Assembly: GCA_965199495.1 (NCBI GenBank)
Contig: CBDASK010000003.1
Coordinates: 1,024,001 to 1,088,000 of the forward strand
Reading direction: 5' to 3'
Origin: Abditibacterium sp.
GTDB taxonomy: Bacteria; Armatimonadota; Abditibacteriia; Abditibacteriales; Abditibacteriaceae
DNA: 64,000 nt
The first letter of the stretch is position 1; the number at the start of each line of letters is the position of its first letter. Position numbers and translations under genes: made by a program. The notes beneath the pieces are model-generated. The model saw only the letters and a list, made by a program, of their open reading frames with translations, ran no database searches and was not told the DNA's origin. Of the stretch, positions 1 through 62,986 are shown piece by piece.

Positions 1-1065
1 TTCGATTCGACCGTCGTCATCCGCGATTTGTCGCTCGCCATTCGCGAGGGCGAACTGTTCTTTTTGCTCGGCCCGTCGGGTTGCGGCAAGACGACTTGTT
101 TGCGCATGGTCGCCGGTTTTTATCAACCCGATGGTGGCGAGTTGCGCTTTGGCGAGCGCGTGATGAACGACGTGCCGCCGCACAAACGCAACACGGGCAT
201 GGTCTTCCAAAACTACGCGTTGTGGCCGCATTTAACGGCACATGGCAACATCGAATACGGCTTGAAAGTCCGCAAAATCCCACGGCCCGAACGCGATAAA
301 TTAGTCGAGAACGCCTTACAAATGGTGCGATTGGAAGGTCTCGGCAAACGCTATCCGTCGCAGATGTCGGGCGGGCAGCAGCAGCGCGTGGCTCTGGCGC
401 GCGCCTTGGTGATTCGGCCCGATATTTTGTTATTGGACGAGCCGCTTTCCAATCTTGATGCGCAGTTGCGATTGGAAATGCGCGCCGAAATCAAGCGCTT
501 GCACGCCGAAACCGGCACGACGGCGCTTTACGTCACGCACGATCAGGAAGAGGCTTTGTCAATCGCTGACCGCGTCGCGGTGTTGAAAGATGGCGATTTA
601 ATGCAAGTCGGCGCGCCGCGCGAATTGTATCGCCATCCGGTTTCGCGATTTGTCGCCGAATTTATCGGCGAAACCAACTTTTTGCCCGGCAAGATATTGT
701 CCATCGAGCCGCAAACCGTGCGCGTCGAAACGCCCGCAGGCATTTTGACGGCGGCGCGTTCCAATGGCAATTGGCAGTTGAATCAACAGGTTTGGTGTTC
801 GATTCGGCCCGAATCGTGGCATTTGCAGAGCAGCGAGCAAGCAGAGGCGCCGCCCAACCGCTTCGCCGCGCAACTCGAAGACGCGATGTATCTGGGTCAA
901 AACGAGCAATTGCGCGCGCGCTTGACTGGCGGCGTGGCTGCTTCGGGCGACAGTTGGCGTTTGCTCAAAATCGCGGTGCCTAACCCAACGGCGAAGTCGC
1001 CCCACGTCGGCGTGCCGATTACCCTGTTTTGCGCGCCCGAAGATGTCGTCGTGATGGCGGAATAA
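1..1065 (+). CDS. ABC transporter ATP-binding subunit (PotA/FbpC-like, TOBE C-terminus), 5' end truncated by the window
   Basis: Walker A GPSGCGKT, MVFQNYALWPHL, signature MSGGQQQR, Walker B LLLDEP, VTHD; the frame is open to base 1. Confidence 0.93.
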   Translation, partial: FDSTVVIRDLSLAIREGELFFLLGPSGCGKTTCLRMVAGFYQPDGGELRFGERVMNDVPPHKRNTGMVFQNYALWPHLTAHGNIEYGLKVRKIPRPERDKLVENALQMVRLEGLGKRYPSQMSGGQQQRVALARALVIRPDILLLDEPLSNLDAQLRLEMRAEIKRLHAETGTTALYVTHDQEEALSIADRVAVLKDGDLMQVGAPRELYRHPVSRFVAEFIGETNFLPGKILSIEPQTVRVETPAGILTAARSNGNWQLNQQVWCSIRPESWHLQSSEQAEAPPNRFAAQLEDAMYLGQNEQLRARLTGGVAASGDSWRLLKIAVPNPTAKSPHVGVPITLFCAPEDVVVMAE

Positions 1066-1212
1066 GCGAATAAATTCGCAGCCACAATTAACCGTCGGCC
1101 TGCGCCGACGCACCGCAATATCAATGCGATGCACTGTTCTTCGTCTTTATAAATTCTTCGCGTCGGCGCAGGCCGACGGTTAATTGTGGCTGCGAATTTA
1201 TTCGCTTATTCC
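1059..1212. repeat. Long inverted repeat (REP-like, ~53 bp arms)
   Basis: GGAATAAGCGAATAAATTCGCAGCCACAATTAACCGTCGGCCTGCGCCGACGC with its reverse complement at ~1160-1212. Confidence 0.9.
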
Positions 1213-1213
1213 G

Positions 1214-1702
1214 ATGATTTCCATCCGCGCGTTTCAACCCGACGACGAAAAACATTTGCCCCGTTTTCTCGCGCTCGCCGCGCACGAAGACGACACGCAA
1301 ATCGTGCTGGCAAATCCCGATTTGGCGCGTTACATCGAAGATTTCGGTCGCGACGGCGATTGCGCGATTGTCGCACACAGCGACGAAAAAATAGTCGGCG
1401 TCGCGTGGGCGCGTTTGTGGACGAGCGGTAATTGTGGTTTCGGGTGGATTGACGAGGCGACGCCGGAAATGGCGATTGCGGTCGAAGCTGATTTTCGAGG
1501 TCAAGGCATCGGCACACGTTTAATTGAAGCATTAAAATCTGAATTATGCGCGGCGGGTGCGCAGCAAATTGCGCTCAACGTACGCGCTGATTCGCGGGCG
1601 GTGCAGCTTTATGAAAAGTTGGGATTCGCGAAAGTTGATGGCAGCGAACGAACCAATCGCACGGGCGGAGTTTCATTCAATATGTTGGCGCCGTTGCGTT
1701 AA
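1214..1702 (+). CDS. GNAT family N-acetyltransferase
   Basis: AVEADFRGQGIGTRL acetyl-CoA motif and LYEKLGF; start placed at the ATG after the repeat. Confidence 0.88.
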   Translation: MISIRAFQPDDEKHLPRFLALAAHEDDTQIVLANPDLARYIEDFGRDGDCAIVAHSDEKIVGVAWARLWTSGNCGFGWIDEATPEMAIAVEADFRGQGIGTRLIEALKSELCAAGAQQIALNVRADSRAVQLYEKLGFAKVDGSERTNRTGGVSFNMLAPLR

Positions 1703-1714
1703 AATATCTTCGTT

Positions 1715-3034
1715 ATGAAATCGGCGCCACGCACTCCCACAATTCGCGATTATTTCGGCGTCAGCATTTATTGGCTGGGACTTTCGTTTTTCTGGGGCGC
1801 GATGCTCACGCTGGTTTTGCCCAATCGCATTGACGAACTGTTCCCCGCCGATAAAGATCGCATTTTGACGATCATCGCCAGTTCGGGCGCCGCCATCGCG
1901 ACAATCGCGCAGGTGTTTTTCGGCGCGTGGAGCGATACGTCGCGCAACCGAATTGGGCGCAGACGGCCATTTTTATTAGTCGGCACGCTGGGCGGCTGTT
2001 TCACATTATTGTTCTTTCCAAGCGCGCACACTTTGTTATCGTTACTGGCGGTTTTCCTGTTGCTTCAACTGTGGATTAACGTCGCGGGCGGGCCATACCA
2101 AGGTTTAATGCCCGACTTAATTCCCTCCAGCAAACACGGCACGGCGGCGGCTTGGATGGGCGCGGCTTCGATTGTTGGACGTATCGGCGGGCCGATTGCA
2201 GCGTCGGTTTTGTTGCGACCCGACACCCAAAGTTGGTTGGAGCCACGGGCGCCGTGGCTGCATGCGCTGGGCGCTAATCTCGGCCTGAGTTTGCTGGCTT
2301 TAATCTTCATCGCCGTGTTGCTCCTCGCGATGATTTTGACGCTCGTTTCGGCGCGCGAAACGCCGCTCGCTGCGGATTCGCCGCGCGTCGGCATTGGCGC
2401 GACGATCATGGGAATTTTGCGTGTGCCGCTCAAACCATATCCCAGTTTCGTGTGGCTGATGATTTCGCGATTGGGCATCATGTTGGGCGTTTACACGGTT
2501 TCGTTTTGTCTGCTTTATTATATTCGCGATACGCTGGGGTTTTCCGACCAGAGCCAATCGTTGAAAGTGCTGACCAATTTTTTGTTAATTTCGACTTTCA
2601 CTGGCATCATTGGGACGATTCCGGCGGGTATCATCAGCGACAAAATTGGCAAAAAGCCGATTTTATATTTCGCCAACACGGTTTGCATGGCGTCGGGTTT
2701 GGCGTTCGCGCTATCGCACGATTTGACGATGGCCTATATCGCGGCGGGCATTTTTGGCGCGGGTTATGGCGCGTTCGCGGCGGTGGATTGGGCGCTGGCG
2801 TGTAACTTGTTGCCGCCCGATTCGCCCGCCAAATATCTGGGATTGTGGGGCATTTCCGATACTTTATCGCAAGTCGTGGCGCCGCTTTTGGCGGGGCCAA
2901 TTGCGTTCTGGATTAACGGCAGCGTCGGCGCGGGCGTCGGCTATCGCGCGCTGATGATTTTGGCGTTGATTTATTTCGGATTGGGCACATTGACGATTCG
3001 ATTTATCCGCGAGAAAGTTTCGGATAGCAGATAA
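1715..3034 (+). CDS. MFS transporter (SLC45/sugar-like)
   Basis: GAWSDTSRNRIGRRRPF and SDKIGKK MFS loop motifs; about 12 hydrophobic segments. Confidence 0.88.
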   Translation: MKSAPRTPTIRDYFGVSIYWLGLSFFWGAMLTLVLPNRIDELFPADKDRILTIIASSGAAIATIAQVFFGAWSDTSRNRIGRRRPFLLVGTLGGCFTLLFFPSAHTLLSLLAVFLLLQLWINVAGGPYQGLMPDLIPSSKHGTAAAWMGAASIVGRIGGPIAASVLLRPDTQSWLEPRAPWLHALGANLGLSLLALIFIAVLLLAMILTLVSARETPLAADSPRVGIGATIMGILRVPLKPYPSFVWLMISRLGIMLGVYTVSFCLLYYIRDTLGFSDQSQSLKVLTNFLLISTFTGIIGTIPAGIISDKIGKKPILYFANTVCMASGLAFALSHDLTMAYIAAGIFGAGYGAFAAVDWALACNLLPPDSPAKYLGLWGISDTLSQVVAPLLAGPIAFWINGSVGAGVGYRALMILALIYFGLGTLTIRFIREKVSDSR

Positions 3035-3107
3035 TCTCCAACACTCTCTCAACCAATTTGGCCTTGCTCCACGCGCGCGCAGAGGGCTATCCTAAACGTT
3101 GATTCCC

Positions 3108-3479
3108 ATGCTTTCCGCGATTATCACTGGCGCCGCGCTCATCTCGCTTGGCCCGATTTTCTTCCTGCTCGGCGAACCCGGACAGCGCCATGCGACGGCG
3201 TTTATTCCGTCGTTTTTCGGCTTCATCATCTTGATTCTCGGCATCGTTGCGAGCAATCCGGCGCGCACCAAAATGGCGATGCACGCCGCCGTCGGTTTCG
3301 CGATGGTCAGCGCCTTGGGCGCTTTGTTCATGGGCGGCCCCAAATGGCCCGCGTTGCTGAGCGGCCAACTCACGTTTCGCCCACTGGCCGCGCTGGCGAT
3401 GTTAGTTATGTTCGTGATTTGCGCGATTTTCGTGGCGACATCGGTTGGTCGCTTCATCAAAATGCGCCAACCCAAGTAA
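3108..3479 (+). CDS. Small membrane protein (about 4 TM)
   Basis: Hydrophobic ORF between the MFS gene and holA, TAFIP motif. Confidence 0.7.
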   Translation: MLSAIITGAALISLGPIFFLLGEPGQRHATAFIPSFFGFIILILGIVASNPARTKMAMHAAVGFAMVSALGALFMGGPKWPALLSGQLTFRPLAALAMLVMFVICAIFVATSVGRFIKMRQPK

Positions 3480-3486
3480 GCGTGCC

Positions 3487-4662
3487 ATGACGATTAACTA
3501 CGCCAACTTCGACGCCAAACGCGCGCTGGGGCGCAAGGGTGAGCCACATCGCGTTTACGGCGTGTGGGGCGACGCCTATTTGCAAGGGCGCGTCATTCAA
3601 TCGTTGCTCGAATGGTCGCTTGCGAGCGACGCGCGCGATTTTAATCTCGACACGCTCGACGGCGAAAGCACGACGGTCAGCGATCTATTAGCCACGGCGA
3701 CCAGCTTGCCATTTTTGTCGGATCGGCGCGCCATCGTCGTCAAGCGCGCCGACAAACTCGAAGGCGTTGCCACGACAACTGCGGGCGGCGCGAAAAAGAA
3801 GAAGACGGATACTTCGCCCGCCGCGCGTTTGGCCGAAGGCATCGAAAAACTGCCGCCTTCCACGGTGCTGATTTTGGCGCGCTCGCCCGAAACGCCCGAA
3901 CCCGGCGACAAACCCGGCGAACGCTGTCTCAACGCCGCGCTCGACAAAATCATCGGCGATAACGGCGTATTAATTAATTGTCTGGTGCCACCCAAAGCGA
4001 TGCCCATCGCGATTTCTATCGTCGAAAACGAGGCGGCGGCGCACGAGATAATTTTAGCGCGTGGAGCCGCCGCGCATTTGGTCGAACGTTGCGGCACCGA
4101 CATCGCCGCGCTGTTATCGGAACTCGAAAAATGTGCGTTGCGCGCGGGCATCGGCCAACCGGTGACGGCGGCGGTCATTGACGAGATGACCAAGCGGGCT
4201 TTGCACGAAACCGTCTTCGACTTGACCGATGCCGTCGGCGCGCGTCAGGGCGTCAAAGCGTTGAGTTCGCTGCAAGAACTGCTGGGCGCGGGCGAACCCG
4301 CCGAATTGATTATGTCACTCATCGTGCGCCATCTGCGGCAACTGTTGCAGGCGCGCGCCCTGCTCGACGCCGGTTTGTCGCTCGACGGTAGCGCGGCACG
4401 AAACATTTCGCCGCAATTGATGGCGCAGTTGCCCGCCGGACGCGACAACCTGGCGACGGCGCTGCAATCGCAAAGTTGGATGGGCGGACGCTTGAACAAT
4501 CAGGCGCGTTATTTCTCGACGGCGCAATTATCGCGCGCACTGGAACTGGCGTTCGAGGCCGATTTGCAATCGAAAGGCATCGAAGGCAACGGCGGCTTCG
4601 ACACCAAAGACGAATCGCGCGCCTCGCTGGAAATTTTGGTGGCGAAGTTGTGCGCGCTTTAA
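3487..4662 (+). CDS. holA: DNA polymerase III delta subunit
   Basis: DFNLDTLDG, SLPFLSDRR, ELEK, VFDLTDA and ADLQSKG are typical of HolA. Confidence 0.88.
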   Translation: MTINYANFDAKRALGRKGEPHRVYGVWGDAYLQGRVIQSLLEWSLASDARDFNLDTLDGESTTVSDLLATATSLPFLSDRRAIVVKRADKLEGVATTTAGGAKKKKTDTSPAARLAEGIEKLPPSTVLILARSPETPEPGDKPGERCLNAALDKIIGDNGVLINCLVPPKAMPIAISIVENEAAAHEIILARGAAAHLVERCGTDIAALLSELEKCALRAGIGQPVTAAVIDEMTKRALHETVFDLTDAVGARQGVKALSSLQELLGAGEPAELIMSLIVRHLRQLLQARALLDAGLSLDGSAARNISPQLMAQLPAGRDNLATALQSQSWMGGRLNNQARYFSTAQLSRALELAFEADLQSKGIEGNGGFDTKDESRASLEILVAKLCAL

Positions 4663-4693
4663 AAGCAGATTGTTGTTCACGCTTCTCTTATTA

Positions 4694-4827
4694 CGCCCTC
4701 ATTGTCATTCTGAGCGTAGCGAGGAATCCATGACATACGGTTACCGGCAAAGGTCAAGTTTCATCGCAACCGATGGATTCTTCGACTGCGCTCGTTCCTC
4801 GCTACGCTCAGAATGACAATGAGGGCG
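4694..4827. repeat. REP-like palindrome, GTCATTCTGAGCG...CGCTCAGAATGAC family
   Basis: CGCCCTCATTGTCATTCTGAGCGTAGCGAGGAA pairs with TTCCTCGCTACGCTCAGAATGACAATGAGGGCG; related copy at 17793. Confidence 0.9.
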
Positions 4828-4850
4828 CAGTGTTCTTGGTTTGCCTTCAC

Positions 4851-5393
4851 TCAACGCAACGCCGCTTTGACAAAGCGTCCGCCGCGCCATTTTAAATCGA
4901 ACGTGTGCCAGCGCTTTTGTTTGCTTAAATCGAACTTATAGACGCGAATCGTCGTGCCGATGCGCGGCAGTTCGTAAAGATATTGATTTTGTCGAACCGG
5001 CACGGGCAATTCTCTTTCGGTGACATCGCGCAGTTTGCCCTTATTCAAACGATAAAGACTGAAACCGTTGTAATCGCTGTGGTAATCGGGAGCGCTCTGG
5101 GCGACGAGTTCGGCGCCGTGATAGCGAAAAACGGCGATTTGCTCGCGCGGCGACGAATCGGGGTTGACCGACATATAATCGTGACGCAGATCAACAACGG
5201 GTTCGTAGGGCGCTTTCAATAGTTCGCGGCGCTGAGTGCCTTCATAACCGCTGATTCCGATGGCGCGCAACAGAAAGAAATAATCGAGAACGTTGTGACG
5301 TTTCGCCCCATCTTTCGACAGCGCGCGCGGCGGCGTGGCTGCAAGCGCAACCAAGGCCAGCGATGCAGCCACGGCGAACGGCAAGAGTTTCAT
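4851..5393 (-). CDS. Secreted hypothetical protein (probable paralog of 38202-38981)
   Basis: N-terminal signal peptide; DYF..RRELL..VDLRHDY..QIAVF..LPRIG. Confidence 0.75.
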   Translation of the reverse strand: MKLLPFAVAASLALVALAATPPRALSKDGAKRHNVLDYFFLLRAIGISGYEGTQRRELLKAPYEPVVDLRHDYMSVNPDSSPREQIAVFRYHGAELVAQSAPDYHSDYNGFSLYRLNKGKLRDVTERELPVPVRQNQYLYELPRIGTTIRVYKFDLSKQKRWHTFDLKWRGGRFVKAALR

Positions 5394-5415
5394 GGTGAGA
5401 CGAAATTCAACGAGA

Positions 5416-6099
5416 TTAACCTTTATTTTCTTCGACCATCTTATAACCGACGTTGCGCACGGTTTGAATCAACTCGTCGAATTGCGGGCCGATTTTGGCG
5501 CGCAGACGGCGAATATGAACGTCAACGGTGCGCGTGCCGCCGAGATATTCTTCGCCCCAAACGTGACGCAAAAGCGCGTCGCGCGAGAAAACGCGGCCTC
5601 GGTGCGTAATGAGAAAACGCAAAAGCTCGAACTCTTTGTAGGTCAAATCGAGCGGCTCGCCTTTGAGATTGACCGAATACGAGGCCAGATTCATCACCAG
5701 ACTTCCAGCTTTGATGGTGTCTTTGGAATCGACTTTGGAGAGGCGCCACAGCACGAAACGGATGCGCGTGTTGAGTTCCTCGAAACTATCGGAGCGCACT
5801 AAAAAATCTTCCAGACCGATGGAAAAATCGAGCGTGACAGCGTCGCGCGGGTCAACCAAGGCGACGATGGGAATGTGCTTGAGTTCGCGGTCGCCCTTGA
5901 GCGTGCGCACGGTCGAAGTCGGGTCGGAAGTCGAAGCCGTGAAATCGAAGATGATGAGGTCGGCGCCGCGATCCTGAACCTGCTCGAAAAAAGATTCTTC
6001 GGGATCGGCCATCCACGGGCGATAGCCCCAACCCACGAGCTGCAAACGCAGTTCGCGGATAAATTTGCGGTCGGTCGAAGCCAAAGCGACGTTAATCAT
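5416..6099 (-). CDS. OmpR/PhoB-type response regulator with atypical receiver (GlnR-like)
   Basis: Winged helix LTYKEFELL...RTVDVHIRRLRAK...TVRNVGYK; start could be 6132. Confidence 0.9.
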   Translation of the reverse strand: MINVALASTDRKFIRELRLQLVGWGYRPWMADPEESFFEQVQDRGADLIIFDFTASTSDPTSTVRTLKGDRELKHIPIVALVDPRDAVTLDFSIGLEDFLVRSDSFEELNTRIRFVLWRLSKVDSKDTIKAGSLVMNLASYSVNLKGEPLDLTYKEFELLRFLITHRGRVFSRDALLRHVWGEEYLGGTRTVDVHIRRLRAKIGPQFDELIQTVRNVGYKMVEENKG

Positions 6100-6222
6100 A
6101 AGATATTCCCTACGCCTAAAATATCTTTTCATTACCCGTGTTCTAACTATTATAAAACAAAGATAATAAAAACATTTGAAGGAACTTGCGTTAGTATGAC
6201 TTAAACATCGCCCAATGACAAA

Positions 6223-6250
6223 ACCGCTCGTTCTCCAAAGAACGAGCGGT
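6223..6250. terminator. Hairpin, likely terminator of the upp-yjbQ-small ORF unit
   Basis: ACCGCTCGTTCT-CCAA-AGAACGAGCGGT followed by a T run on the minus strand. Confidence 0.65.
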
Positions 6251-6307
6251 CGAATCGAAACACCTCCTAATAAAAACCATTTTATTGGTATTACTCGGAC
6301 GAGTTAT

Positions 6308-6418
6308 TTATTTCTTTTTGTTGTCCGAAGCGGCGATTGCCTCTTTTTTCGCGGCGCGGTCGCGTTCTTTACGACGCTTGCGACGCTGATTGATTTCGCG
6401 TTGACGTTCCAATGCCAT
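6308..6418 (-). CDS. 36-aa basic protein (DUF6800-like)
   Basis: MALERQREINQRRKRRKERDRAAKKEAIAASDNKKK preceded by a strong SD, AGGAGGT. Confidence 0.75.
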   Translation of the reverse strand: MALERQREINQRRKRRKERDRAAKKEAIAASDNKKK

Positions 6419-6438
6419 AGTTTTTCCACCTCCTGTTT

Positions 6439-6840
6439 TTAACTTTCGTCTTTGATGATTTGCACCCACACGCTGCGCGAGCGCGGCCCATCGAATTCGC
6501 AAAAGAAGACGGCCTGCCAGCGACCGAGTTGCAATTTGCCGTATTCGATGGGAATCGTCTGGCTTGAACCGGTCATTAGAGCTTTGATGTGCGCATCCGA
6601 ATTGCCCTCGGCATGACGATAATCGCCCTCGCGCGGCACCAAAGCATCGAGCGAAGTCGTGATGTCGCGGCAAACATCGGGATCGTAACCTTCCTGAACC
6701 GCGATGCCCGCCGTCGTATGCGGCGCGTAAACGGTGCAGAGACCGCGCCTCACGCCGCTTTCTTCGACCAATCGCCGCACATCGGCGGTAATATTAACCA
6801 TTTCACTCGCGTTTTCCGTTGACAAATGCAAGGTGAGCAT
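6439..6840 (-). CDS. yjbQ: YjbQ/UPF0047 family protein
   Basis: HTTAG, DPDV, HAEGNSDAHIK, LGRWQ and EFDGPR. Confidence 0.93.
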   Translation of the reverse strand: MLTLHLSTENASEMVNITADVRRLVEESGVRRGLCTVYAPHTTAGIAVQEGYDPDVCRDITTSLDALVPREGDYRHAEGNSDAHIKALMTGSSQTIPIEYGKLQLGRWQAVFFCEFDGPRSRSVWVQIIKDES

Positions 6841-6876
6841 CGCGTAATAGCTTATCAGATTTCGGGCAATCCGCTC

Positions 6877-7524
6877 TTATTCCGTTCCAAAGGCTCTATC
6901 GCCCGCGTCGCCAAGTCCCGGCACGATGAAAAATCGTTCGTCAATTTTAGCATCAACGGCGGCGCAAAAAATCGTGACTTCGGGATATTTCTCGCCGATC
7001 CGTTCGATGGCAGGTTGCGACGCAATGATGGACAAAACGCGAACCAAATGAATATCGGCGCCGCGCTCGGTCAGCGCATCGAGCGCCTGAACCAGAGTGC
7101 CACCCGTCGCCAGCATCGGTTCCAAAATTAAAATGCGCGCGTCCGATGCAATGCGTTCGGGCAAACCGGTCAGATAACAAACGGCGCGCGCGGTTGCTTC
7201 GTCGCGGCGATAACCGACGTGCAGGATTTTCGCGTCGGGCAAAAGCGGCAAAACGCCTTCCACCAGAGCCAGCCCCGCGCGCAGAATCGGCACGATTTCG
7301 ACGCGCGTTGCGCGATTGAGAATCGTTGCGGGCGCCGAAACATCGAGCGGCGTTTCGATTTGCGTTGCAATCGTCGGCAACCAATCGCGGCAAATTTCGT
7401 AACCGAGCCAGCGCCCAAGGGCAGCCACGGCGCCGCGAAACTGCGGCGTGGCTGTCTGGCGGTCGCGGCATTGCGCGAGGGCATCGGCGATTAACGGATG
7501 ATTCGGGACGTGAACGTGAGGCAT
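6877..7524 (-). CDS. upp: Uracil phosphoribosyltransferase
   Basis: VPILRAG, PMLATGGT and IVPGLGDAGDRAFGT. Confidence 0.96.
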   Translation of the reverse strand: MPHVHVPNHPLIADALAQCRDRQTATPQFRGAVAALGRWLGYEICRDWLPTIATQIETPLDVSAPATILNRATRVEIVPILRAGLALVEGVLPLLPDAKILHVGYRRDEATARAVCYLTGLPERIASDARILILEPMLATGGTLVQALDALTERGADIHLVRVLSIIASQPAIERIGEKYPEVTIFCAAVDAKIDERFFIVPGLGDAGDRAFGTE

Positions 7525-7559
7525 CGAACAGAGTTTGCCCGATGCCTCGTCATTGTTCC

Positions 7560-9116: not shown

Positions 9117-9141
9117 GAATTGAAATAGAAGAAACACAGTT

Positions 9142-9255
9142 GGTTTGTAGTGTCGCCCTAAGGCGAACGGGCGAGGCTAACCAAGACCAGCAGGGGATGC
9201 TTTGTTATCCGAATTCGCCTCACGGCGACACTACGAACCGGCGACACTACGAACC
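9142..9255. repeat. GTAG-type REP with tandem duplication of one arm
   Basis: GGTTTGTAGTGTCGCC opposite two tandem copies of GGCGACACTACGAACC. Confidence 0.8.
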
Positions 9256-9613
9256 TGACCACAAGCCAACTGCGTTTCTCCTTCACGTTTGAGCGGGGGG
9301 CAAGAGAAAGCGAAAACGGCTCGCATTATGGAAGTGCCAAAATTGGAGTGGTTGATTTTAAGACAACGCAGAAGTGTTCTTTCAAGTGACAGTTCTTACT
9401 TTCAAATACCAGCCAACCATGCTTGGACATTTCCTGTTTTCTGTCTCGTCAAAATCAACCGTTCCAAGTTTGGCACTCCCTTCAAGGAAAGAGCAAGCGG
9501 TAGCATTCCCACTCTGGTAAATTATTTTAACAAGTCGTTTCAAAAAGTAAATAGCCGAAATTTCTTTTGGTCGCTTTTCTTTTACAAGAGCCACGCACGA
9601 TTTGTATTACTTC

Positions 9614-11587: not shown

Positions 11588-11626
11588 CATGATCAAAAGT
11601 AGGTGCCGAGCCACCGCCCTTTTTGT

Positions 11627-12826: not shown

Positions 12827-12834
12827 ATTTTGCA

Positions 12835-12905
12835 AAAGGATAAAGGCTAAAGAATGAAAGAGGCGGGAAGAATTTTATCCTTTAGCCTTTATCCTTCAGC
12901 CTTTC
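12835..12905. repeat. Inverted heptamer tandem repeats (AAGGATA/AAGGCTA type)
   Basis: AAAGGATAAAGGCTAAAG ... TTTATCCTTTAGCCTTTATCCTTCAGCCTTT. Confidence 0.75.
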
Positions 12906-13808: not shown

Positions 13809-13914
13809 TTTTCAGGTGTCAGGTGTCAGGTGTCAGGTGTCAGGTGTGGAAATCGCGCCGCGTTGTCCATGCGCTTTCCCTGACACCTGTTCCCTGATAC
13901 CTGACACCTGAAAA
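13809..13914. repeat. Inverted heptamer tandem repeats (TCAGGTG x5 / CACCTGA)
   Basis: TCAGGTG five times at 13812-13846, then degenerate reverse copies. Confidence 0.9.
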
Positions 13915-13915
13915 T

Positions 13916-15136: not shown

Positions 15137-15244
15137 AGTAGAAGGTGAAATGGGGGAAGTTAAAAACGCGCGAGGCGCGATAATTTTTCGACTTCCCTAT
15201 TTTAACAAACACGCGGTTTCAAGGATGTTACAGGCGAGATTTGA

Positions 15245-15523: not shown

Positions 15524-15538
15524 GACGCGATTCGCGCG

Positions 15539-16198: not shown

Positions 16199-16251
16199 GT
16201 GTGTTGGAGTTAAGCAGATTGTGGGCGTGCGCACGCTTAATCTGCCGAATC

Positions 16252-45267: not shown

Positions 45268-45282
45268 GAAAATTTCAATCTC

Positions 45283-45963: not shown

Positions 45964-45972
45964 AATTCTTTC

Positions 45973-48095: not shown

Positions 48096-48114
48096 CGTTC
48101 TGTGAACCCGAAAT

Positions 48115-50274: not shown

Positions 50275-50383
50275 GAACGCAGTTTGCGTGTTCGTCCGAG
50301 CGCGCGCTACTTGGTGATAAGTCAAGCGGCACGCGCTTCACGAAAGAGGCATCAGTTCCATTTCCCTTGAATTAAGCGCCCAA

Positions 50384-52843: not shown

Positions 52844-52929
52844 AAGGCAACTCGATAAATCGCCTACGGGCGACTTGACATAGAGTTTGATTGTGAAAGA
52901 TTTTGGCCAAATTTCATCTGTAAAAATCG

Positions 52930-55371: not shown

Positions 55372-55564
55372 TTGCGCCGCATAACTGGAACTTCAAGGTG
55401 CAATGAAACTGCTTTTCAAAAGCGGTGTAGCGCGCTTTGGCTGCGGAAGAATCTCATTCGATAGTCGGGTTTTGCCCCGTTAAGAATTGGTTTAGCGGCG
55501 TGCCCTGCGGCGAGCGAGAGCGCAAACTACACTCAGCCAACGAAAATTGGCGCCGTTAATTTCC

Positions 55565-56941
55565 ATGAAAAACCCGCTTTTGCTCAACGCGCGCGCCTCT
55601 CACGTCCCATCTTTGCGGCGTTTCATCGTGATTTGGTCGGGCGCCATTGGGTTCGCGTTTTTGCTGTTGGGAATGGATGCGGTTTTGACGTTGCGCCATC
55701 TCGACACCACCGCGCGCGACGCAATGAATCACGCCGCGCGCCTGCAACTGCTGCAAAATTTCGAGGTCTCGTCGCTCGAAGCCAATCGTCGTCCCGCCGC
55801 CAACTGGAGCCACGCCGACGACGAACTGCGCCAACTGCAAACGCAGGTCGCGCCCGCCGATTTCGCGCCCATAGAAACGGCTTATCGCGATTTAAAAACC
55901 GAATTTGCCGTGGCGGCGCCGTGGAGCGACGAGCGCCCGTTTCTCGATGCGCTGCGCTCTTATCGTCACGACGAGTTCACGCGCGCCGCCGCCGATAACG
56001 TTCGCAGCGCGCAATTGGAAAGTTTATCGCGCGGCGCGATTTTAGTGCTACTGGCGGTGGCGTTAGCCGGATTGATTGCGGGCAATATCGAGTTGTGGTC
56101 GCGTGTTTTTGGGCCGCTTTTGCGTATTTCGCGCGAGGCCAAACGCTTTGGTGAGGGCGAATTGGGCGCGCGCATCGAAATTGAGCGTGCCGACGAGATC
56201 GGCGAATTATGCGCGACATGGAACGACATGGCGGGCGCCATCGAAGCGCGCGAAGCCGAGCGTCTGCGTTTTGTCGCGGCCCTCGCGCACGACCTGAAAA
56301 ACCCGCTCATGGTCGTGGGCATGGCCGCCACGATGATGCGCGAAAAGCCGAACAAATTCACGCCCGACCAGCGCGACGATTGGTTGGAGAAAATCGCGCG
56401 CAACGCCCGCCGCATGGAAGCGATGATCGCCGATTTGACCAACGCCGTCCAATCGCAAACCGGCGCGCTGCAACTCCAACTCGCGCCGCTCGATTTGGCG
56501 CTCGTCGCCCGCGAATGCGCCGACGAAATTCGGTTGGCCTACCCCAATCATCCCATCGCCGTCTCTGGTGCGCAGTCACTCGAAATCAACGGCGACCGCG
56601 CCCGATTAGAACGCGTCATCGCCAATTTATTGTCCAACGCGGCCAAGTATTCGGCGCCGCAAACCGAGATTATCGCGGATTTAAAATCCGATAAAAACCG
56701 CGCGATTCTGTCGGTGCGCGATCAAGGCGCGGGCATTTCGCCCGAAGATTTGAAGCGATTATTTACGCCGTTCGTGCGATTGGAACGGACGGAAAAGATG
56801 GCGAGCGGCACCGGTTTGGGTTTGGCGACAACGAAAAAATTAATCGAAGCGCACGGCGGCGAATTAGAAGTCGAAAGCGCACTCGGCGTCGGCTCAACGT
56901 TTCGCGTAATTTTGCCGGTTGATAGCGCGAATAAAAATTAG
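55565..56941 (+). CDS. HAMP-domain sensor histidine kinase
   Basis: DEIGEL, AHDLKNPL, NLLSNAAKYS, DQGAGI and GTGLGL. Confidence 0.94.
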   Translation: MKNPLLLNARASHVPSLRRFIVIWSGAIGFAFLLLGMDAVLTLRHLDTTARDAMNHAARLQLLQNFEVSSLEANRRPAANWSHADDELRQLQTQVAPADFAPIETAYRDLKTEFAVAAPWSDERPFLDALRSYRHDEFTRAAADNVRSAQLESLSRGAILVLLAVALAGLIAGNIELWSRVFGPLLRISREAKRFGEGELGARIEIERADEIGELCATWNDMAGAIEAREAERLRFVAALAHDLKNPLMVVGMAATMMREKPNKFTPDQRDDWLEKIARNARRMEAMIADLTNAVQSQTGALQLQLAPLDLALVARECADEIRLAYPNHPIAVSGAQSLEINGDRARLERVIANLLSNAAKYSAPQTEIIADLKSDKNRAILSVRDQGAGISPEDLKRLFTPFVRLERTEKMASGTGLGLATTKKLIEAHGGELEVESALGVGSTFRVILPVDSANKN

Positions 56942-56980
56942 CAATTTGGCCAATTGCGGCGCGGCATTTATACTTTGGGC

Positions 56981-57547
56981 ATGAGAAACAATGAGCCGCG
57001 CGCCGAAATTTCCGAAGGCCGCCAACTGCTTTATTACGCGGGCATGGGCCTGACGGCAATTGGACTATTACTTTTCTTTTCGACGTTCCTGACCGTTTTT
57101 CGCAGCGGCCCATCGCTTGGCGATTCGCCTTTTGGCGGCTCGCCTGAATCAACCATCATCACCACATCGCCCGGTAGCGAAGCGTTCTTCCCAGAAGCGC
57201 ATCGTCCAGTTCGAGGCCCACAAACAACTTTTGGTCGCGCGTTTCTCGGTTTTGGCATGGTTTTCGTCGGCGGCATCCTGATGAATCTGGGCCGCGCCGG
57301 TTTGCGCGGTTCGGGCGTCATTCTCGACCCACACGGCGCGCGTGACGATCTCAAGCCGTGGAGTCAAGCGGCGGGCGGAATGCTCGACGATGCGCTGTGC
57401 AGTAGCCACGTCGTGAGCCGCGCCGTCGAACGCATCGGCGATGATGACGACAAACCGCGCGAAATTGTGCGCGTGCGTTGTCCCGATTGCCGCACGCTCA
57501 ACGACGAAGACGCCAAGTTTTGCGACAACTGCGGCGCGGCACTTTAA
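56981..57547 (+). CDS. Membrane protein with C-terminal zinc ribbon
   Basis: Two TM; CPDCRTLNDEDAKFCDNCG. Confidence 0.85.
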   Translation: MRNNEPRAEISEGRQLLYYAGMGLTAIGLLLFFSTFLTVFRSGPSLGDSPFGGSPESTIITTSPGSEAFFPEAHRPVRGPQTTFGRAFLGFGMVFVGGILMNLGRAGLRGSGVILDPHGARDDLKPWSQAAGGMLDDALCSSHVVSRAVERIGDDDDKPREIVRVRCPDCRTLNDEDAKFCDNCGAAL

Positions 57548-57550
57548 TCA

Positions 57551-58086
57551 ATGCTTAGCCGCGATTTAATCGAGCGCCACGCCCGCCAAACCAACGAACA
57601 GATGGCGCGCATTAACGCGACTGTCGCGCGCCGCGATAAAAGCCAACAAGATTGGCAGAACTGGAAGGATGCCTGTCACGTTTGGCACACTTCGGAGAAC
57701 GCATCTTTTGCTTTGTGGCCGCTCGAAGCGCGCGACAAAATGCGCGCGGGCGACCGCGAAACTATCGAAGACGCTTTGCTGTTTCTGGAAGTTGATCCGT
57801 GGTTTTTCGTTCGGGTTATCTCAAAGAACGCGTGATTCGCCATCTGAAAAGTGCGCCCCTCTCCGAAGCCGACAAAGGCCGTTTGCGCAACGTCATTTTT
57901 GCTGTCGCAATGAGGCGTAACCGTCGCGAATGGAGCGATTTTTGTCGCTTGGCCCTCGCCGTTTGGACGCCCGAATGGGAAAGTTATCTGCGCGAACAAA
58001 AACGGGTGCGCGGCGTGGGTCACGGCAACAAACTTTTCAATTTGCTCCAATTCCTTGAGGCTCACCGTGATAAATTGCGCGTTTAA
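57551..58086 (+). pseudogene. Hypothetical gene split by a 1-nt frameshift in a T run
   Basis: ...LEVDPWF in one frame continues as FRSGYLKE... in another across T5 at 57803-57807. Confidence 0.7.
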
Positions 58087-60524
58087 CCCAACTTCACCAC
58101 GGTCGCGCCGTCGCCGCCTTCGGCGGCATCAGCCACGGCGTAGCCTTTGACACCGCGCGCGGTTTTCAACCATTGATGAATGGCGTTGCGTAGTGCGCCC
58201 GTTCCGCGTCCGTGAACGATGCGCACCGACTTTTTGCCCGCCAGAATCGCGTCGTCCAAATACGGTTCCAATTCCTCGAACGCCTCGTCCACGCGTTTGC
58301 CGATGACGTTGATTTCCTCTTCGACAACATAACCTTTGCGCGCCTGAATCGAACCGATGCCGCCGACGCCGACCATTTTCTTGGCGGCGTCCAAATCGTT
58401 GGCGGCGACGGCGATTTTCATGGCGCCGACGCGGACTTCGATTTTCTCGCCGTTTAAGCCGACGATTTCGCCTTCTTTGCCCACGCTTTTCACGTTGACC
58501 AAATCGCCGATTTTGTATTGATGCGCCGGTTTCGGTCGGGCGCGCAATCTTCCGCGCACAATCGAAGGATGCGGCGCGGGCGCTTCGATGGCCGGACGTG
58601 GCTGCGTCTCGGCGCCCTCGAATTTGACGACGGTTTCGCGTAGGCCGCGCAATTTGCCGCGCGCGGCTTCGGTGCCTTTGTTTTCGCCGCCCGCGCTTCC
58701 GGCTTTGCGCAGTTCGCGCAACGCTTCGTCGGCTTCGCGCGCGGCGCGCTCGACCAATTCGCGCGCTTCCTGTTTAGCGGCGGCGATAGATTTTTCTTTC
58801 TCGCGCTCGACGATTGCAATGCGCCGCTCGTAATCGCGCTCCAAATCTTCGACGCGCGCGCGGGCTTCGCGCATTTCGGCGGCTTGCTGGGTCAAATCGC
58901 GCTGGGTTTCTTCCAGGCGCTGCGCCGCTGCTTCGTTTTCGACGCGCTCGCGGCCCATGTATTTGCGCGAACGCTGAATAATATCGGCGGGCATTCCTAA
59001 ACGCGCCGCGATGTCCAGAGCGTTGGAAGCGCCCGGCACGCCGATGCGCAAATGATAAGTCGGCCCCAGCGAAATCGGATCGAATTCGACCGACGCGTTC
59101 TCAAAGCGCAACGCCGACAACGCGAATTGTTTCAGTTCGCCATAATGCGTCGTCGCCACGACGCGCGCGCCTTTGCGCGAGAGCGCCCGCAATGTCGCTT
59201 TGGCGAGCGCGGCGCCTTCGTCGGGATCGGTTCCGGCGCCGATTTCGTCGAACAAAACCAAATCGCCCATTTTCACCGTTTCCAAAATCGCGATGATATT
59301 TTTCAAATGCCCCGAAAACGTCGAAAGCGATTGTTCGATGGATTGTTCGTCGCCGATGTCAACATGAATTTGCGGCGGCAGATGCAGCCACGAATCGTCG
59401 TCAACCGGCAAATGCAAACCGCAACCGGCCATCGCGGTGAGAAGTCCCAGCGTTTTCAAAACGATGGTTTTGCCGCCGGTGTTTGGCCCGGTCAGCATCA
59501 TCACGTCGAAATCGCCGCGCTCGGTGATGGCACTCTCATCGCCAATTTGAATATCATTAGGCACGCAATCACCAACGAGCGGATGCCGCGCTCGATGCAA
59601 TTTCCAACCAGTCACCTCGTCGCGCAAAAGCGGCGCGCGCCCGTTCATTTGCGCCGACAATCGCGCTTTGGCAAACGCGAAGTCCAAATCACCAGCCACG
59701 TCGAGAGCCTCGCGCAAATCGGGCGCGGCGCCACCGACGTAATCCGACAAACTGCGCAAAACCTGTTGCACCGCTTCTTTTTCGTCGGCGGCCAACTCGC
59801 GCAGACGATTATTGAGTTCGACGACCGCTTGCGGCTCGATGAAAACCGCGTTGCCCGAACCGCTACGGTCGTGAACGATGCCCGGCACCGACGCGCGACT
59901 TTCGGCTTTGACCGGCAAACAATAACGCCCGTCGCGCACCGTCACGAACTGATCTTGCAAATGTCCCGACAAACGCGAATCGCCCAGCATCGCGCGCAAT
60001 TTGGTCTGGATTTGCGATTGCGCCGCGCGCATCCCGCGCCGCGCTTTGAGTAAGTCGAGCGAAGCGTCATCGCGGATTCCGGCGTTGTCGTCAATCGCGT
60101 CGTAAATCGTTTTTTCGACATCGCTACGCGGAACGATCCGTTCGGCCAAATCCAATAATCGCGGAAAACGCGCGTCGAGTTCCGGTTCAATATCCAAAAT
60201 CGCCACGCGCAAACGGCGCGCGCCTTCGCTGGCGCGGCCAATCGCCAACAGCGCCGATTCGTCCAACAGCGCGCCTTTGCCCGCCGCTTGAACCGCAGCA
60301 GCCACGTCGGTCAGCCCGCCAAACGGCGGATGGCGCACGATCTGGGTAAATTCGCGCGCCTCGCTCGTCAAAGCCATACGCGCGCGCGCGATTCCGTTAT
60401 CGTTGGTCGGCGCGAGTTCGCGCACGCGCGCGCGACCCAATTCGCAGGCGCAGGCATTTTCGAGTTGCGATAAAACGGTGGGTAATTCGAGACGGTCGAG
60501 CGAACGTTTTTGATAAGACGACAT
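58083..60524 (-). CDS. mutS2: MutS2 endonuclease (Smr domain)
   Basis: TGPNTGGKT, DIGDEQSIEQSLSTFSGH, DEIGAGTDP, TTHY and IVHGRGTGALR. Confidence 0.96.
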   Translation of the reverse strand: MSSYQKRSLDRLELPTVLSQLENACACELGRARVRELAPTNDNGIARARMALTSEAREFTQIVRHPPFGGLTDVAAAVQAAGKGALLDESALLAIGRASEGARRLRVAILDIEPELDARFPRLLDLAERIVPRSDVEKTIYDAIDDNAGIRDDASLDLLKARRGMRAAQSQIQTKLRAMLGDSRLSGHLQDQFVTVRDGRYCLPVKAESRASVPGIVHDRSGSGNAVFIEPQAVVELNNRLRELAADEKEAVQQVLRSLSDYVGGAAPDLREALDVAGDLDFAFAKARLSAQMNGRAPLLRDEVTGWKLHRARHPLVGDCVPNDIQIGDESAITERGDFDVMMLTGPNTGGKTIVLKTLGLLTAMAGCGLHLPVDDDSWLHLPPQIHVDIGDEQSIEQSLSTFSGHLKNIIAILETVKMGDLVLFDEIGAGTDPDEGAALAKATLRALSRKGARVVATTHYGELKQFALSALRFENASVEFDPISLGPTYHLRIGVPGASNALDIAARLGMPADIIQRSRKYMGRERVENEAAAQRLEETQRDLTQQAAEMREARARVEDLERDYERRIAIVEREKEKSIAAAKQEARELVERAAREADEALRELRKAGSAGGENKGTEAARGKLRGLRETVVKFEGAETQPRPAIEAPAPHPSIVRGRLRARPKPAHQYKIGDLVNVKSVGKEGEIVGLNGEKIEVRVGAMKIAVAANDLDAAKKMVGVGGIGSIQARKGYVVEEEINVIGKRVDEAFEELEPYLDDAILAGKKSVRIVHGRGTGALRNAIHQWLKTARGVKGYAVADAAEGGDGATVVKLG

Positions 60525-60582
60525 AAAAAATCTGTTTACAGACGGAACAAAAGGAAATGCGTTGCGGTCAAAGGCGGCACCA

Positions 60583-61422
60583 ATGTTCATTCGCAAATCT
60601 TCCTCTTTGTCGTTGTGCGCCGTGGCTGCTATGGCAGCCACGGCGCATGCGCAAACCGTAAATTATCCGGTCGCAAATGGCGTCACCTTAAAAGCTCGCG
60701 CTTACACCGACTATTCTGGGCCGCTCAAATACGCCTCGCGCTACGATTTGGCGATTGCCGGCACGCCCAAAGACGGCACAAAATGGGATTTCACGCTGCC
60801 TGTTGAGCCAGAGTATCATTACACCGGCGGCATTTTCAATGAGGCTTCCCCGACGACTTACAACAACAAACCGACCGCGATTCTGCGCGCGACGCTTCAT
60901 CAATACCAAATTTATGACGAGCGAGTCACTTTCAAAAATTTGGATTTAGCGCCAGTCGCCGCCAAAGGTTCGATGTTCGATTTCGGTTCGCAAGTTACGC
61001 CGCGCGCTTTGTCGCTGAAGGAGCCAGTCACTTTGACGACACCGAGCGGCATCTCGGTCACTTTGCCCGCGCAAGATGCGACAACGTTATTTGAAGTTTT
61101 CAGCAACTTTAACGGCAACGCCAACGCGCTATTCATGAAAATAAACGTTTCGCCCGACGAGCGCGCAGTGACGTTGCCCGCTTCGCCGCTCTACAAAAAA
61201 TACGGTAAACCCGTTACCATCCAATTGAAAACGCCAGCACCAAATTCGATGATATGGGACAGTGCCGATAACACGTTCAAAACATTTGCCATCTATTTAC
61301 CGAACTTGAAAACGTTAAAACATCTCGATTCGCTAACGCTCGTTTTGCGCCAACGTGTCGAATTGCAAACGATTCCCGTTGCCATCGAAGTTCCCGTCGA
61401 GCGTCTGGTCAAAAATAAGTAG
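60583..61422 (+). CDS. Secreted hypothetical protein
   Basis: Signal peptide AHAQ followed by a long ORF. Confidence 0.7.
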   Translation: MFIRKSSSLSLCAVAAMAATAHAQTVNYPVANGVTLKARAYTDYSGPLKYASRYDLAIAGTPKDGTKWDFTLPVEPEYHYTGGIFNEASPTTYNNKPTAILRATLHQYQIYDERVTFKNLDLAPVAAKGSMFDFGSQVTPRALSLKEPVTLTTPSGISVTLPAQDATTLFEVFSNFNGNANALFMKINVSPDERAVTLPASPLYKKYGKPVTIQLKTPAPNSMIWDSADNTFKTFAIYLPNLKTLKHLDSLTLVLRQRVELQTIPVAIEVPVERLVKNK

Positions 61423-61465
61423 CATTTGTTACACTGGGCGCGTTTAATTTCAACAAACATTCATT

Positions 61466-61816
61466 ATGGCTATGACTTTAGAATACGGGAAATGCGCTTC
61501 GTGCGGGCGCGAAAATCCCAAAGCTATCGAACAGTGTCGCGGTTGTAACGCGGTTTTGCCGTGGGTCAAAGGCGCCGCGCCCAAGGCAGCCACGGCGGGC
61601 AACCATTCCTCTGGCAATGCTAAACCCAAAGTCGGTTTGGGCGACATCGCGTGGGGCGGCATGGCCGTGGCTTTGGGCGGCGGCGCGATTTTCGTGTTGG
61701 GAATCGTGCTGTGGTGCGGCAACGTCTTCGGATTTCTGCCGACCGTGCCGGGCGCGGGTTACATCACGATGGCAATCGGTGGCGCGATTTGGCGTTTCGG
61801 CAGTTCGATGGAATAA
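61466..61816 (+). CDS. Zinc-ribbon membrane protein
   Basis: CASCGREN...CRGC plus two TM; GNVFGFLPTVP. Confidence 0.75.
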   Translation: MAMTLEYGKCASCGRENPKAIEQCRGCNAVLPWVKGAAPKAATAGNHSSGNAKPKVGLGDIAWGGMAVALGGGAIFVLGIVLWCGNVFGFLPTVPGAGYITMAIGGAIWRFGSSME

Positions 61817-61828
61817 TTCTTCGCCGCG

Positions 61829-61867
61829 AAAAAAGCGCGCAACCCAACGGTTGCGCGCTTTTGTTTT
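61829..61867. terminator. Bidirectional terminator
   Basis: AAAAAAGCGCGCAACC-CAAC-GGTTGCGCGCTTTT between convergent genes. Confidence 0.85.
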
Positions 61868-61996
61868 TGTCCAAATGCGGGCGCCGTGGCTACCGTTGAG
61901 GCCAGACAAATCGCCAGTAAAGCGGCGCGTTAAAAATGAAATTTTATGCAAGCTGAATTTGCCACGTTAAACCCGCCCGCTTTGGCCAAATGTCGC

Positions 61997-62986
61997 TTAC
62001 AACTTCCATTTCAATAATTTCGCTTGCTGTTCATTGACCAACTGCACATGACCATTAACTAAACAGACAATCGCATAACCATGATGCCGAAAGTCTAAAT
62101 TTTGGTTGCTGCCTTCATAAAACAACACTAACTTGTCGGTTTCGACGTTCCATGCCGCGCGATTTGTTTTGTCGCTAAATTCCAATATAATGGGATCGGA
62201 ATGCGCTATGCCGTCCGAGTCAATGTAATTCGTCGGTTCGCGCTCAAGTTTCGACCAGGCGACGCCGGTTACATTATCGTTGAGCGCGAAACTCACATCT
62301 TTATCTGACGCACAATGAAAAACCGCTTCAGCTTTGATGTAAGGCATCAATTTATCTTTAAATGTTGCAACCGTCAACTCCACTTTGCCCTGCTCCTCAT
62401 CTTCATAATCCTGCTGATATAGGAGCCAACCCAAACCGATGGCTTTGGCATTAGTCAGGCAAATGTCAGTCGCTTTGCGGCTCAAAACCGCATCGGGATG
62501 GGCGACGGCAGTCGCCAGATTGAGCAGAAACCCGACTTTTTTGTTGCTGAAAAATAGCGCGGCTTCATCCGGCACAATTTTCCAGCGGTTGCCCTCGCGC
62601 CGCAATTGCAACGTCTCTGGTTGAGTCAAAGTGCCGAATAAGCCGTCTCGGAGTTCAAGTTGCGCGGTAACGGTGGCTTCATCGCCCTTGATTTCGGTGT
62701 GCAAATCGTGGAGCGTGAGCAAGACGTTTGGGTTGGCGGCTTTAAATTCCTGATTCAATTGCGCCAACGGCTCCCCGTTTTGCGCGCCAACAACCCACTG
62801 CGCCATCCCGATGAGATTGCCCGCGCTATAATCATAAGCCAACGATTTTACGGCGATTTCCGGTGGCAGTTTGATAATTGGTGGCGCGCCTGCCACGGGG
62901 AATTTCACGACGGGCGCCGGTGCGTCCGCAGCAGCCACGCGCGCGCCTAACGCCAACGGGATCAGAAATAACCAATGATTTTTCAT
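61997..62986 (-). CDS. Secreted protein with a DUF1559-like C-terminal domain but no prepilin leader
   Basis: CLTNAKAIGLGWLLYQQDY, LMPYIKAEAVFHC and RHHGYAIVCLVNGHV. Confidence 0.72.
   Translation of the reverse strand: MKNHWLFLIPLALGARVAAADAPAPVVKFPVAGAPPIIKLPPEIAVKSLAYDYSAGNLIGMAQWVVGAQNGEPLAQLNQEFKAANPNVLLTLHDLHTEIKGDEATVTAQLELRDGLFGTLTQPETLQLRREGNRWKIVPDEAALFFSNKKVGFLLNLATAVAHPDAVLSRKATDICLTNAKAIGLGWLLYQQDYEDEEQGKVELTVATFKDKLMPYIKAEAVFHCASDKDVSFALNDNVTGVAWSKLEREPTNYIDSDGIAHSDPIILEFSDKTNRAAWNVETDKLVLFYEGSNQNLDFRHHGYAIVCLVNGHVQLVNEQQAKLLKWKL

Follow-up and report, generated by a model that had tools for sequence, protein, structure and literature searches.

A non-palindromic DNA word dispersed through an Abditibacterium genome resembles an uptake sequence and is spaced according to its orientation

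A 2025 review names sequence-based preference for self DNA in the Pasteurellaceae and Neisseriaceae only, and preference by methylation in Campylobacter jejuni (PMC12378983). The DNA uptake sequences (DUS) of the Neisseriaceae occur in dialects (PMC3630211); for these and for the uptake signal sequences (USS) of the Pasteurellaceae, enrichment of tripeptides by the word has been reported (PMC2817400) and drive through transformation has been modelled (PMC1939737, PMC2817400). HIP1 (highly iterated palindrome 1) of cyanobacteria is reported to be methylated and to raise transformation (PMC13756078; bioRxiv 2024.09.10.611283), and its driver is described as still open (PMC13756078). Here, a stretch of 64,000 nucleotides from Abditibacterium sp. 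(Abditibacteriaceae, Armatimonadota; contig CBDASK010000003.1, positions 1,024,001 to 1,088,000), hereafter the window, was analysed together with its host genome and relatives for an iterated 9-mer, which a sequence-only reading of the window had taken as a candidate uptake signal. The word is a signal held at the DNA level genome-wide, and the new elements are an orientation-specific rule for its spacing and a family-level pattern of words.

The host genome (G000) is a 4.81-Mb assembly, 95% complete, with one 4.72-Mb contig and small contigs; our own gene calls gave 3,777 genes and 83% coding DNA. Named homologues of the host's Upp belong to 'Abditibacterium sp.' (72%) and 'Abditibacteriota bacterium' (64%); SdhA, used as a taxonomic probe, matched distant phyla only. 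In the window, the 9-mer CGTGGCTGC is present in 32 exact copies, 16 on each strand, compared with 0.86 expected by computation; the highest count among 100 dinucleotide shuffles was 4. The coordinates, strands and strand balance given in the sequence-only reading were all exact, and A or T follows the motif in 26 of the 32 copies, as it had counted. The 9-mer copies are real, but the best unit is the 8-mer core CGTGGCTG (48 copies in the window), with C at position 9 in 58% of cases only. Genome-wide, 1,783 copies of CGTGGCTGC and 3,091 of CGTGGCTG were counted, and Markov models of order 2-4 predicted 78-130 and 237-436, respectively. The 9-mer is thus 14-23 times above expectation, and words of the motif hold the top rank at k=7 to 11. 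The 4.72-Mb contig contains 1,780 of the 9-mers (863 on the plus and 917 on the minus strand). One-base changes at positions 1-8 lowered the counts 7- to 250-fold, and those at position 9 merely 3- to 7-fold. The cores are flanked by C at -3 (75%), G at -2 (82%), C, G or A at -1, C at +1 (58%) and A/T at +2 (70%). The full motif is CG(S/A)CGTGGCTG(C)(W) and is not palindromic.

Synonymous shuffling of three kinds (within genes, across the genome and conditioned on neighbouring residues; six shuffles each) yielded 90, 78 and 339 9-mers, respectively, whereas coding DNA in fact contains 1,617. The cores are 92% coding and occupy six of six frames, in agreement with the earlier claim of different frames in unrelated genes. 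The proteome contains 1,823 VAA versus 852 AAV and 1,430 AAT versus 781 TAA tripeptides. The use of rare alanine codons in the word was also borne out: GCG and GCC account for 0.51 and 0.33 of alanine codons, GCT and GCA for 0.10 and 0.06, yet GCA GCC ACG encodes 561 of the 1,430 AAT tripeptides. The commonest 16-mer around the cores has 31 copies; the flanks are diverse, and therefore the word is not part of a longer repeat. A repetitive extragenic palindromic (REP)-like repeat of the GTAG type, starting GTAGAGAC, is also present in up to ~290 copies of its 8-mer, and the word does not lie within it.

Chi sites and the FtsK-orienting polar sequences (KOPS) are polarised along replichores. The leading-strand share of the word was 51-53% for three choices of origin and terminus, with dnaA and GC skew as anchors (p 0.01 to 0.6), and no ori-to-ter polarity was found. 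The outcomes that the sequence-only reading had named as refuting its inference (counts explained by codon-preserving shuffles, enrichment confined to the window, strong replichore polarity) all failed to appear. The depletion in acquired DNA that it had suggested looking for was observed on the small contigs, with 2 cores versus 16 expected in C1 and 6 versus 42 in C2 (~7-fold). Judged from the starts of their open reading frames (ORFs), C1 (24.7 kb) seems to resemble a plasmid, and C2 (64.6 kb) a phage or a plasmid. The 5% most codon-atypical genes carry 0.44 words per kb, compared with 0.74-0.82 in the middle classes, and the longest gaps between words sit mostly in low-GC stretches.

The spacing of the word depends on its orientation, a feature missed by the sequence-only reading. 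Neighbouring cores alternate in orientation in 29 of 47 steps in the window (48 copies) and in 1,940 of 3,082 steps genome-wide (z 14; where the gap is at least 200 bp, the share is still 61%), against 48-53% for four control words of 7-8 bp, which showed no same-orientation deficit. The pair correlation of same-orientation copies was 0.0-0.35 below 500 bp and returned to 1 by ~1.5 kb; opposite copies were in excess below 30 bp and had a correlation near 1 past 60 bp. At 50-500 bp, 135 same-orientation versus 433 opposite pairs were found, whereas same-orientation pairs averaged 284, and never fell below 255, in 200 permutations of orientation. In 412 of the 516 genes that have exactly two copies, the two differ in orientation. 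Close inverted pairs number 88 versus 49 expected. The word saturates the chromosome, each strand carrying a copy roughly every 3 kb, and the coefficient of variation (CV) of per-strand spacing, with the top 1% of gaps removed, is ~0.74 versus ~1.0 for the controls. Weak variants sharing 7-8 bp with the word shun same-orientation strong sites too (0.27-0.58 under 500 bp). A one-sided action of the word was rejected: this depletion was the same 5' as 3' of the strong sites, and the G+C content of third codon positions was flat around oriented sites.

The same deficit was seen in a small sample of the related genome G011 (2 same versus 13 opposite) and in a control set of Pasteurellaceae USS. 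The latter comprised 49 of 110 Pasteurellaceae-type metagenome loci (L266-L341; 508 USS, 662 kb), all centred on a strong site and pooled; the 61 dropped loci were short, USS-poor or redundant. At 50-500 bp, 41 same-orientation versus 70 opposite USS pairs were counted (p 0.008; 24 versus 52 without dyads), and at 500-1,000 bp, 86 versus 87. A proven uptake sequence therefore has the same tendency, weaker and over a shorter range; no paper stating such a deficit was found in the literature searched. The orientation-specific spacing suggests that the step reading the word is strand-specific, and plain binding at the pilus tip would not predict it.

The genome panel included 27 genomes of the family, 13 of them from the genus, the host among them. 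The sequence CGNCGTGGCTG was counted 2,180 times in G000, 1,838 times in G011 and 739 times in G004, versus 17-59 times in the other ten genus genomes. It marks these three genomes, which form one clade with 100/100 support in a midpoint-rooted ComEC tree of the 13 genomes. Outside the genus, CGTGGCTGC was near the control level in 28 of 28 sampled genomes; counts beyond the family covered 16 genomes for CGTGGCTGC and 251 genomes of the phylum for RAGTACTY. In G004, a shifted asymmetric dialect, (TA)GGACGTGGCTGGTGTC, shares its core with the clade and has many copies arranged as intergenic inverted pairs; GGACGTGGCTG occurs 1,764 times there versus 64 in G000 and 44 in G011.

Coding sites of G000 aligned to G011 were identical in 53 of 82 cases, versus 37.8% for control 8-mers, and in the reverse direction 54 of 63 G011 sites were common to G000, G011 having somewhat fewer sites. 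Against G004, 20 of 94 sites were identical, below the control value of 29.4%, which indicates turnover and not conservation. Against four word-free relatives, none of 75 sites was identical (controls 13-17%). A gap lay nearby in 6 of the 82 G011 alignments and in 15 of the 94 G004 alignments, and the differences were mostly substitutions. Third codon positions compared with G011 were conserved in 202 of 244 cases inside the word and 353 of 488 in the flanks. The word is maintained at the DNA level, made by base substitution in unrelated genes and rare on mobile DNA.

De novo scans of samples of 9-200 kb per family genome revealed dispersed words in 11 of the 27 genomes, either asymmetric (GGACGTGGCTGGTGTC, CCACAAAAAATG) or HIP1-like and palindromic (TCGAGTACTCGA, GCAAGTACTTGC). 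No word was seen in the scanned samples of the other 16, the smallest of which were 9 kb (G021), 18 kb (G019) and 29 kb (G008). The 3.2-Mb genome of G001 (L161, L085, L382) bears the asymmetric word CCACAAAAAATG, (ATT)CCACAAAAAATGA, with 2,162 exact 12-mers (1,120/1,042); its sister G008 contains 25 copies of this 12-mer, clustered on a few contigs. As G001 is sister to the word-free G008, words arise or vanish repeatedly. GTAC-centred palindromes (TCGAGTACTCGA, CGAGTACTCG, GCAAGTACTTGC, CAAAGTACTTTG) were found at ~0.7-1.2 per kb in G020, G022, G024, G042, G014 and G018, with even spacing (CV 0.58 in G020 and 0.55 in G022). RAGTACTY was hyper-abundant in 5 of the 251 phylum genomes, all from this family (2,695-4,371 sites; G018 lay outside this sample). 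This core of the sister genera is scarce in G000 (5 versus 117 for the reversed control) and in most genus genomes. In G017 (L176-L185), a 23-bp hairpin, AGTACGGTCGA-W-TCGACCGTACT, with A/T-rich flanks was detected (214 half-sites in 200 kb); these hairpins are terminator-like and evenly spaced, and many copies are intergenic inverted pairs.

Genes of the competence pathway were examined for a protein that could read the word. ComEC was found in 13 of 13 genus genomes, ComEA and DprA each in 25 of 27 family genomes, and all 5 genomes examined for pilus ATPases and secretins had both. The host carries a pilB-pilT-pilC-pilD operon (G000:C3:861-881 kb; L406) with four minor pilins of unusual length (290-610 amino acids); two 1,300-residue proteins are encoded in the same region. 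Genome-wide, 48 prepilin motifs were counted, 40 with an H-X9-DG tail. The minor pilins were rejected as genes tracking the word, being present in word-bearing and word-free genomes alike; their identity to G000 was 26-52% in three relatives, versus 70-82% for PilC. Likewise, no extra gene peculiar to word-bearing genomes was found within 1.5 kb of comEC or comEA. In word-free G012 (L094, L400) and G005 (L093), the ComEC matches are without the N-terminal 240-300 residues, and ComEA of G012 lies in a 62-residue frame; competence may be decaying in these two genomes.

On balance, the word probably serves as a self-DNA tag for natural transformation with a strand-specific step, as far as sequence comparison can tell. 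As part of the reading of such a tag, it would on the whole seem to have evolved independently of DUS and USS. One of the competence proteins (type IV pilus, ComEA, ComEC and DprA are all encoded) would prefer word-bearing DNA, and word-bearing alleles would displace others by recombination, a molecular drive with the endpoint that each incoming fragment of ~1-1.5 kb holds one word. The decisive step would be the choice of a strand for import, for protection or for loading in recombination. Such a drive would favour a site only if it added to the success of its carrier fragment, and a site would benefit its own strand only, across ~1-1.5 kb. A second copy on the same strand would then add nothing, a copy on the other strand would, and spacing between same-orientation copies would follow; with per-strand action, a palindrome, as in the sister genera, would be the economical form. 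In Neisseria gonorrhoeae, single-stranded DUS of one strand is cited as transforming better than the other (PMC12061091), so a strand effect has a precedent, and the overlapping DUS dyads reported in Simonsiella (PMC3630211) offer a route from an asymmetric word to a palindrome. By analogy, candidate readers would be the four minor pilins encoded in the pilB-pilT-pilC-pilD operon, which diverge fast. A wider proposal is that the Abditibacteriaceae possess one fast-evolving DNA-recognition system that repeatedly rewrites genomes with new asymmetric or palindromic words, the reader acting per strand and the palindrome being its two-strand solution; this is possible but doubtful.

Several observations weigh against a self-DNA tag. 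Word density in the host is higher in coding than in intergenic DNA (0.72 versus 0.31 per kb), and only 16 of the 88 close inverted pairs are intergenic, both unlike DUS and USS. Compared with the USS control, the orientation effect is more pronounced and extends further (Fisher p 0.0001 at 50-1000 bp), and in 180 kb of the G004 dialect no such effect was seen (10 same versus 11 opposite). The family's dialects diverge far beyond those of the Neisseriaceae and are patchy on the tree, and therefore the words may not share a single mechanism. The competence and pilus genes expected by the sequence-only reading are indeed encoded, but they are equally common in the 16 family genomes without a seen word, and therefore gene presence does not discriminate. 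The ComP family (PF16732) was found in 0 of 5 genomes by a search without a positive-control match and with PpdA outside it. The uptake reading agrees with the genomic features tested, while no receptor was found for it. Furthermore, the orientation of USS is reported to make no difference to uptake in Haemophilus influenzae (PMC1939737), and uptake is reported not to rise with two USS within 100 bp (PMC7811141), whereas opposite copies are not redundant here. With orientation-independent uptake that close pairs do not raise, the strand-specific step would lie at or after strand selection and not in simple capture of double-stranded DNA.

Orientation-specific spacing is also exactly what a directional reader predicts, and the word could be a Chi-like signal of double-strand-break repair, read one way by a translocating helicase-nuclease. 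Because random breaks from desiccation or radiation would require sites on both sides, the two orientations would be kept equally dense and be spaced independently. The G004 dialect holds seven of the eight letters of Escherichia coli Chi, and neither AddAB nor RecBCD was detected in G000, G004 and G011, the other ten genus genomes having an AddAB-like pair. The same three-genome clade carries a 1,421-residue protein missing from those ten (G000:C3:4111365-4115630, minus strand; L155:6365-10630). Its N-terminal PD-(D/E)XK nuclease and C-terminal superfamily 1 helicase form a Dna2-like layout; representatives of 50% clusters included 169 relatives at E<1e-30, the search reached no curated family, and its best PADLOC matches were partial, to Mokosh-type helicases. 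However, this clade correlation is a single event. No AddA/RecB-type helicase was found in G000, UvrD being the sole match, and RecC was found in 0 of 5 genomes with a positive E. coli control. Loss of AddAB was rejected as a cause, as AddAB and a word of its own, the 12-mer in 2,162 copies, occur together in G001, and the 14 other family genomes are without this AddA type, with or without a word. As a universal reader, the 1,421-residue protein was rejected as well: it is encoded in 5 of 27 family genomes, including word-free G016, was not found in seven other word-bearing genomes, and is broken in word-positive G011 (frameshift, residues 1-679 unmatched). Nor do exact words of 11-16 bases, dyads resembling terminators or palindromic forms of the word look like Chi. 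A Chi-like role is therefore unlikely, although the nuclease-helicase could still be the reader in the three-genome clade alone, G011 with its broken copy having somewhat fewer sites.

The evenly spaced palindromes of the sister genera, at ~1 per kb, resemble HIP1 and could point to a methylation mark, in which an orphan methyltransferase would modify one strand and repair or recombination would read the mark; asymmetric words would then need a copy per strand and palindromes would serve both. Several C5, N4/N6 and Dam-like methylases are encoded in G000, but none of these families follows the words, and a methylase was rejected as the tracking gene. C5 methylases are present in 13 of 27 family genomes and were not found in word-bearing G001, G014, G018, G022, G024 and G042, and the C5 enzyme common to G004 and G011 has no match in the G000 proteome. 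At the family level, orthology among matches left aside, N4/N6 methylases occur in 5 of 5 word-positive and 5 of 5 word-negative genomes; Dam-like enzymes occur in two of five word-positive genomes. A specificity of 11-16 bp is long for a methylase. This explanation is quite unlikely, and it overlaps with a self-DNA tag if the mark acts in transformation. The even per-strand spacing (CV ~0.74 versus ~1.0) would also suit a site for a chromosome-organising or recombination protein, with close direct repeats purged through deletions and regular distances reflecting nucleoid architecture; HIP1 has been proposed to be structural and linked to deletion between two copies (PMC13756078). Purging is opposed by the control words, which have no same-orientation deficit, and by the weak variants, which avoid same-orientation strong sites on both sides equally; fast replacement of words among close relatives and their absence from most of the genus poorly fit an essential role. 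We regard this as very unlikely. A selfish repeat (a remnant of REP or of a miniature inverted-repeat transposable element) or a functionless mutational by-product, to which the many intergenic inverted pairs in G004 and G017 might point, is extremely improbable and already largely refuted by the coding position and diverse flanks of the host's cores, the predominance of substitutions at orthologous sites, the conservation of third codon positions inside the word, the non-random spacing and the separateness of the GTAG-type family. A phage search with the G004 word returned 25 single scattered matches and no enriched locus attributable to the clade.

The copies in the window are listed in Table 1. 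The window also contains two RNA-repair genes, for Pnkp (35051-37579) and Hen1 (41955-43394), 4 kb apart.

Table 1. Copies of the dispersed word in the window
Position	Strand	Feature
1..64000	.	dispersed motif CG(S/A)CGTGGCTG(C)(W), 32 exact 9-mers and 48 8-mer cores, of about 3,090 cores genome-wide
933..941	+	ATP-binding cassette transporter ATPase ORF 28-1065
2253..2261	+	major facilitator superfamily transporter gene
5334..5373	.	convergent inverted pair (5334 +, 5365 -) within called ORF 4851-5393(-)
7421..7429	-	upp (uracil phosphoribosyltransferase)
12459..12467	-	LivM-like permease gene
15020..15028	+	branched-chain amino-acid binding-protein gene, antisense
18266..18274	+	outside own gene calls, between 17734 and 18363
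20340..20348	+	aminoacetone-oxidase-family flavoprotein gene
21145..21153	-	unannotated gene 20695-22434(-)
22351..22359	+	unannotated gene 20695-22434(-), orientation opposite to 21145 copy
23509..23517	+	gene 23404-25482(-)
24724..24732	+	gene 23404-25482(-), second copy
26872..26880	+	RluA-family pseudouridine synthase gene
30052..30060	-	sdhA
30243..30251	-	sdhA, second copy
32133..32141	-	between sdhA and sdhB
33704..33712	+	gene 33335-34165(-)
37597..37605	+	just upstream of pnkp, within ORF 37576-38154(-)
39422..39430	-	TrmH/RlmB-family methyltransferase gene
41101..41109	+	gene 40478-41233(-)
41774..41782	-	gene 41347-41814(-)
42379..42387	-	hen1
44970..44978	-	UbiD-family decarboxylase gene
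54466..54474	+	gene 52930-55353(-)
58597..58605	+	mutS2
59384..59392	-	mutS2, second copy
60298..60306	-	mutS2, third copy
60621..60642	.	tight inverted pair (60621 +, 60634 -) near start of called gene 60583-61422(+)
61586..61594	-	gene 61472-61816(+)
62931..62939	-	gene 61997-62986(-)

No description of such words in this lineage was found in the literature (supplements and most subscription journals lay outside the search), in line with the statement of the sequence-only reading that it knew of none. The family belongs to a distant phylum, includes sister species with and without a word, and has both asymmetric and palindromic words. It lends itself as a natural experiment in which genome comparison could reveal the reader and the sweep of such words through a proteome could be studied. 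The rule of per-strand spacing offers an inexpensive, quantitative test for every known uptake sequence. If a single system does operate in the family, uptake sequences and highly iterated palindromes would be two outputs of one kind of mechanism. The lineage has few cultured members, and the word may be a key to transforming it.

Among the known systems, the short dispersed motif recalls KOPS, read by FtsK, and REP elements, the inverted pairs of two relatives included; it differs from KOPS in having no ori-ter polarity and from REP in not being extragenic and having no long conserved unit in G000. With Chi, read by RecBCD or AddAB, it shares asymmetry, coding location and, as its spacing suggests, the importance of orientation, but it has no leading-strand skew, is longer and more exact, and occurs in a genome without detected RecBCD or AddAB. 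Like HIP1, it is hyper-abundant, evenly spaced, coding and made by substitution, and the sister genera hold true palindromes at ~1 per kb; unlike HIP1, the host's word is not palindromic and no methylase was found to follow it. Compared with DUS (receptor ComP) and USS, the sequence and phylum are unrelated, the host's copies are enriched in coding DNA with few terminator-like pairs, no ComP was found in an uncontrolled search, the orientation effect is stronger and reaches ~1.5 kb, and the dialects are far more divergent, partly palindromic and patchy. The likenesses to DUS and USS are a short asymmetric word in thousands of copies, equal strands, six frames, tripeptide enrichment, rarity in DNA of foreign origin, evenness of spacing, dialects in related genomes, and inverted and overlapping pairs. 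The same-orientation deficit is shared with USS, and, as in the Neisseriaceae, the dialects of G004 and of G000/G011 share a core and follow the phylogeny inside the clade. On genomic tests, the word resembles an uptake sequence, though not one belonging to the Neisseriaceae or Pasteurellaceae systems.

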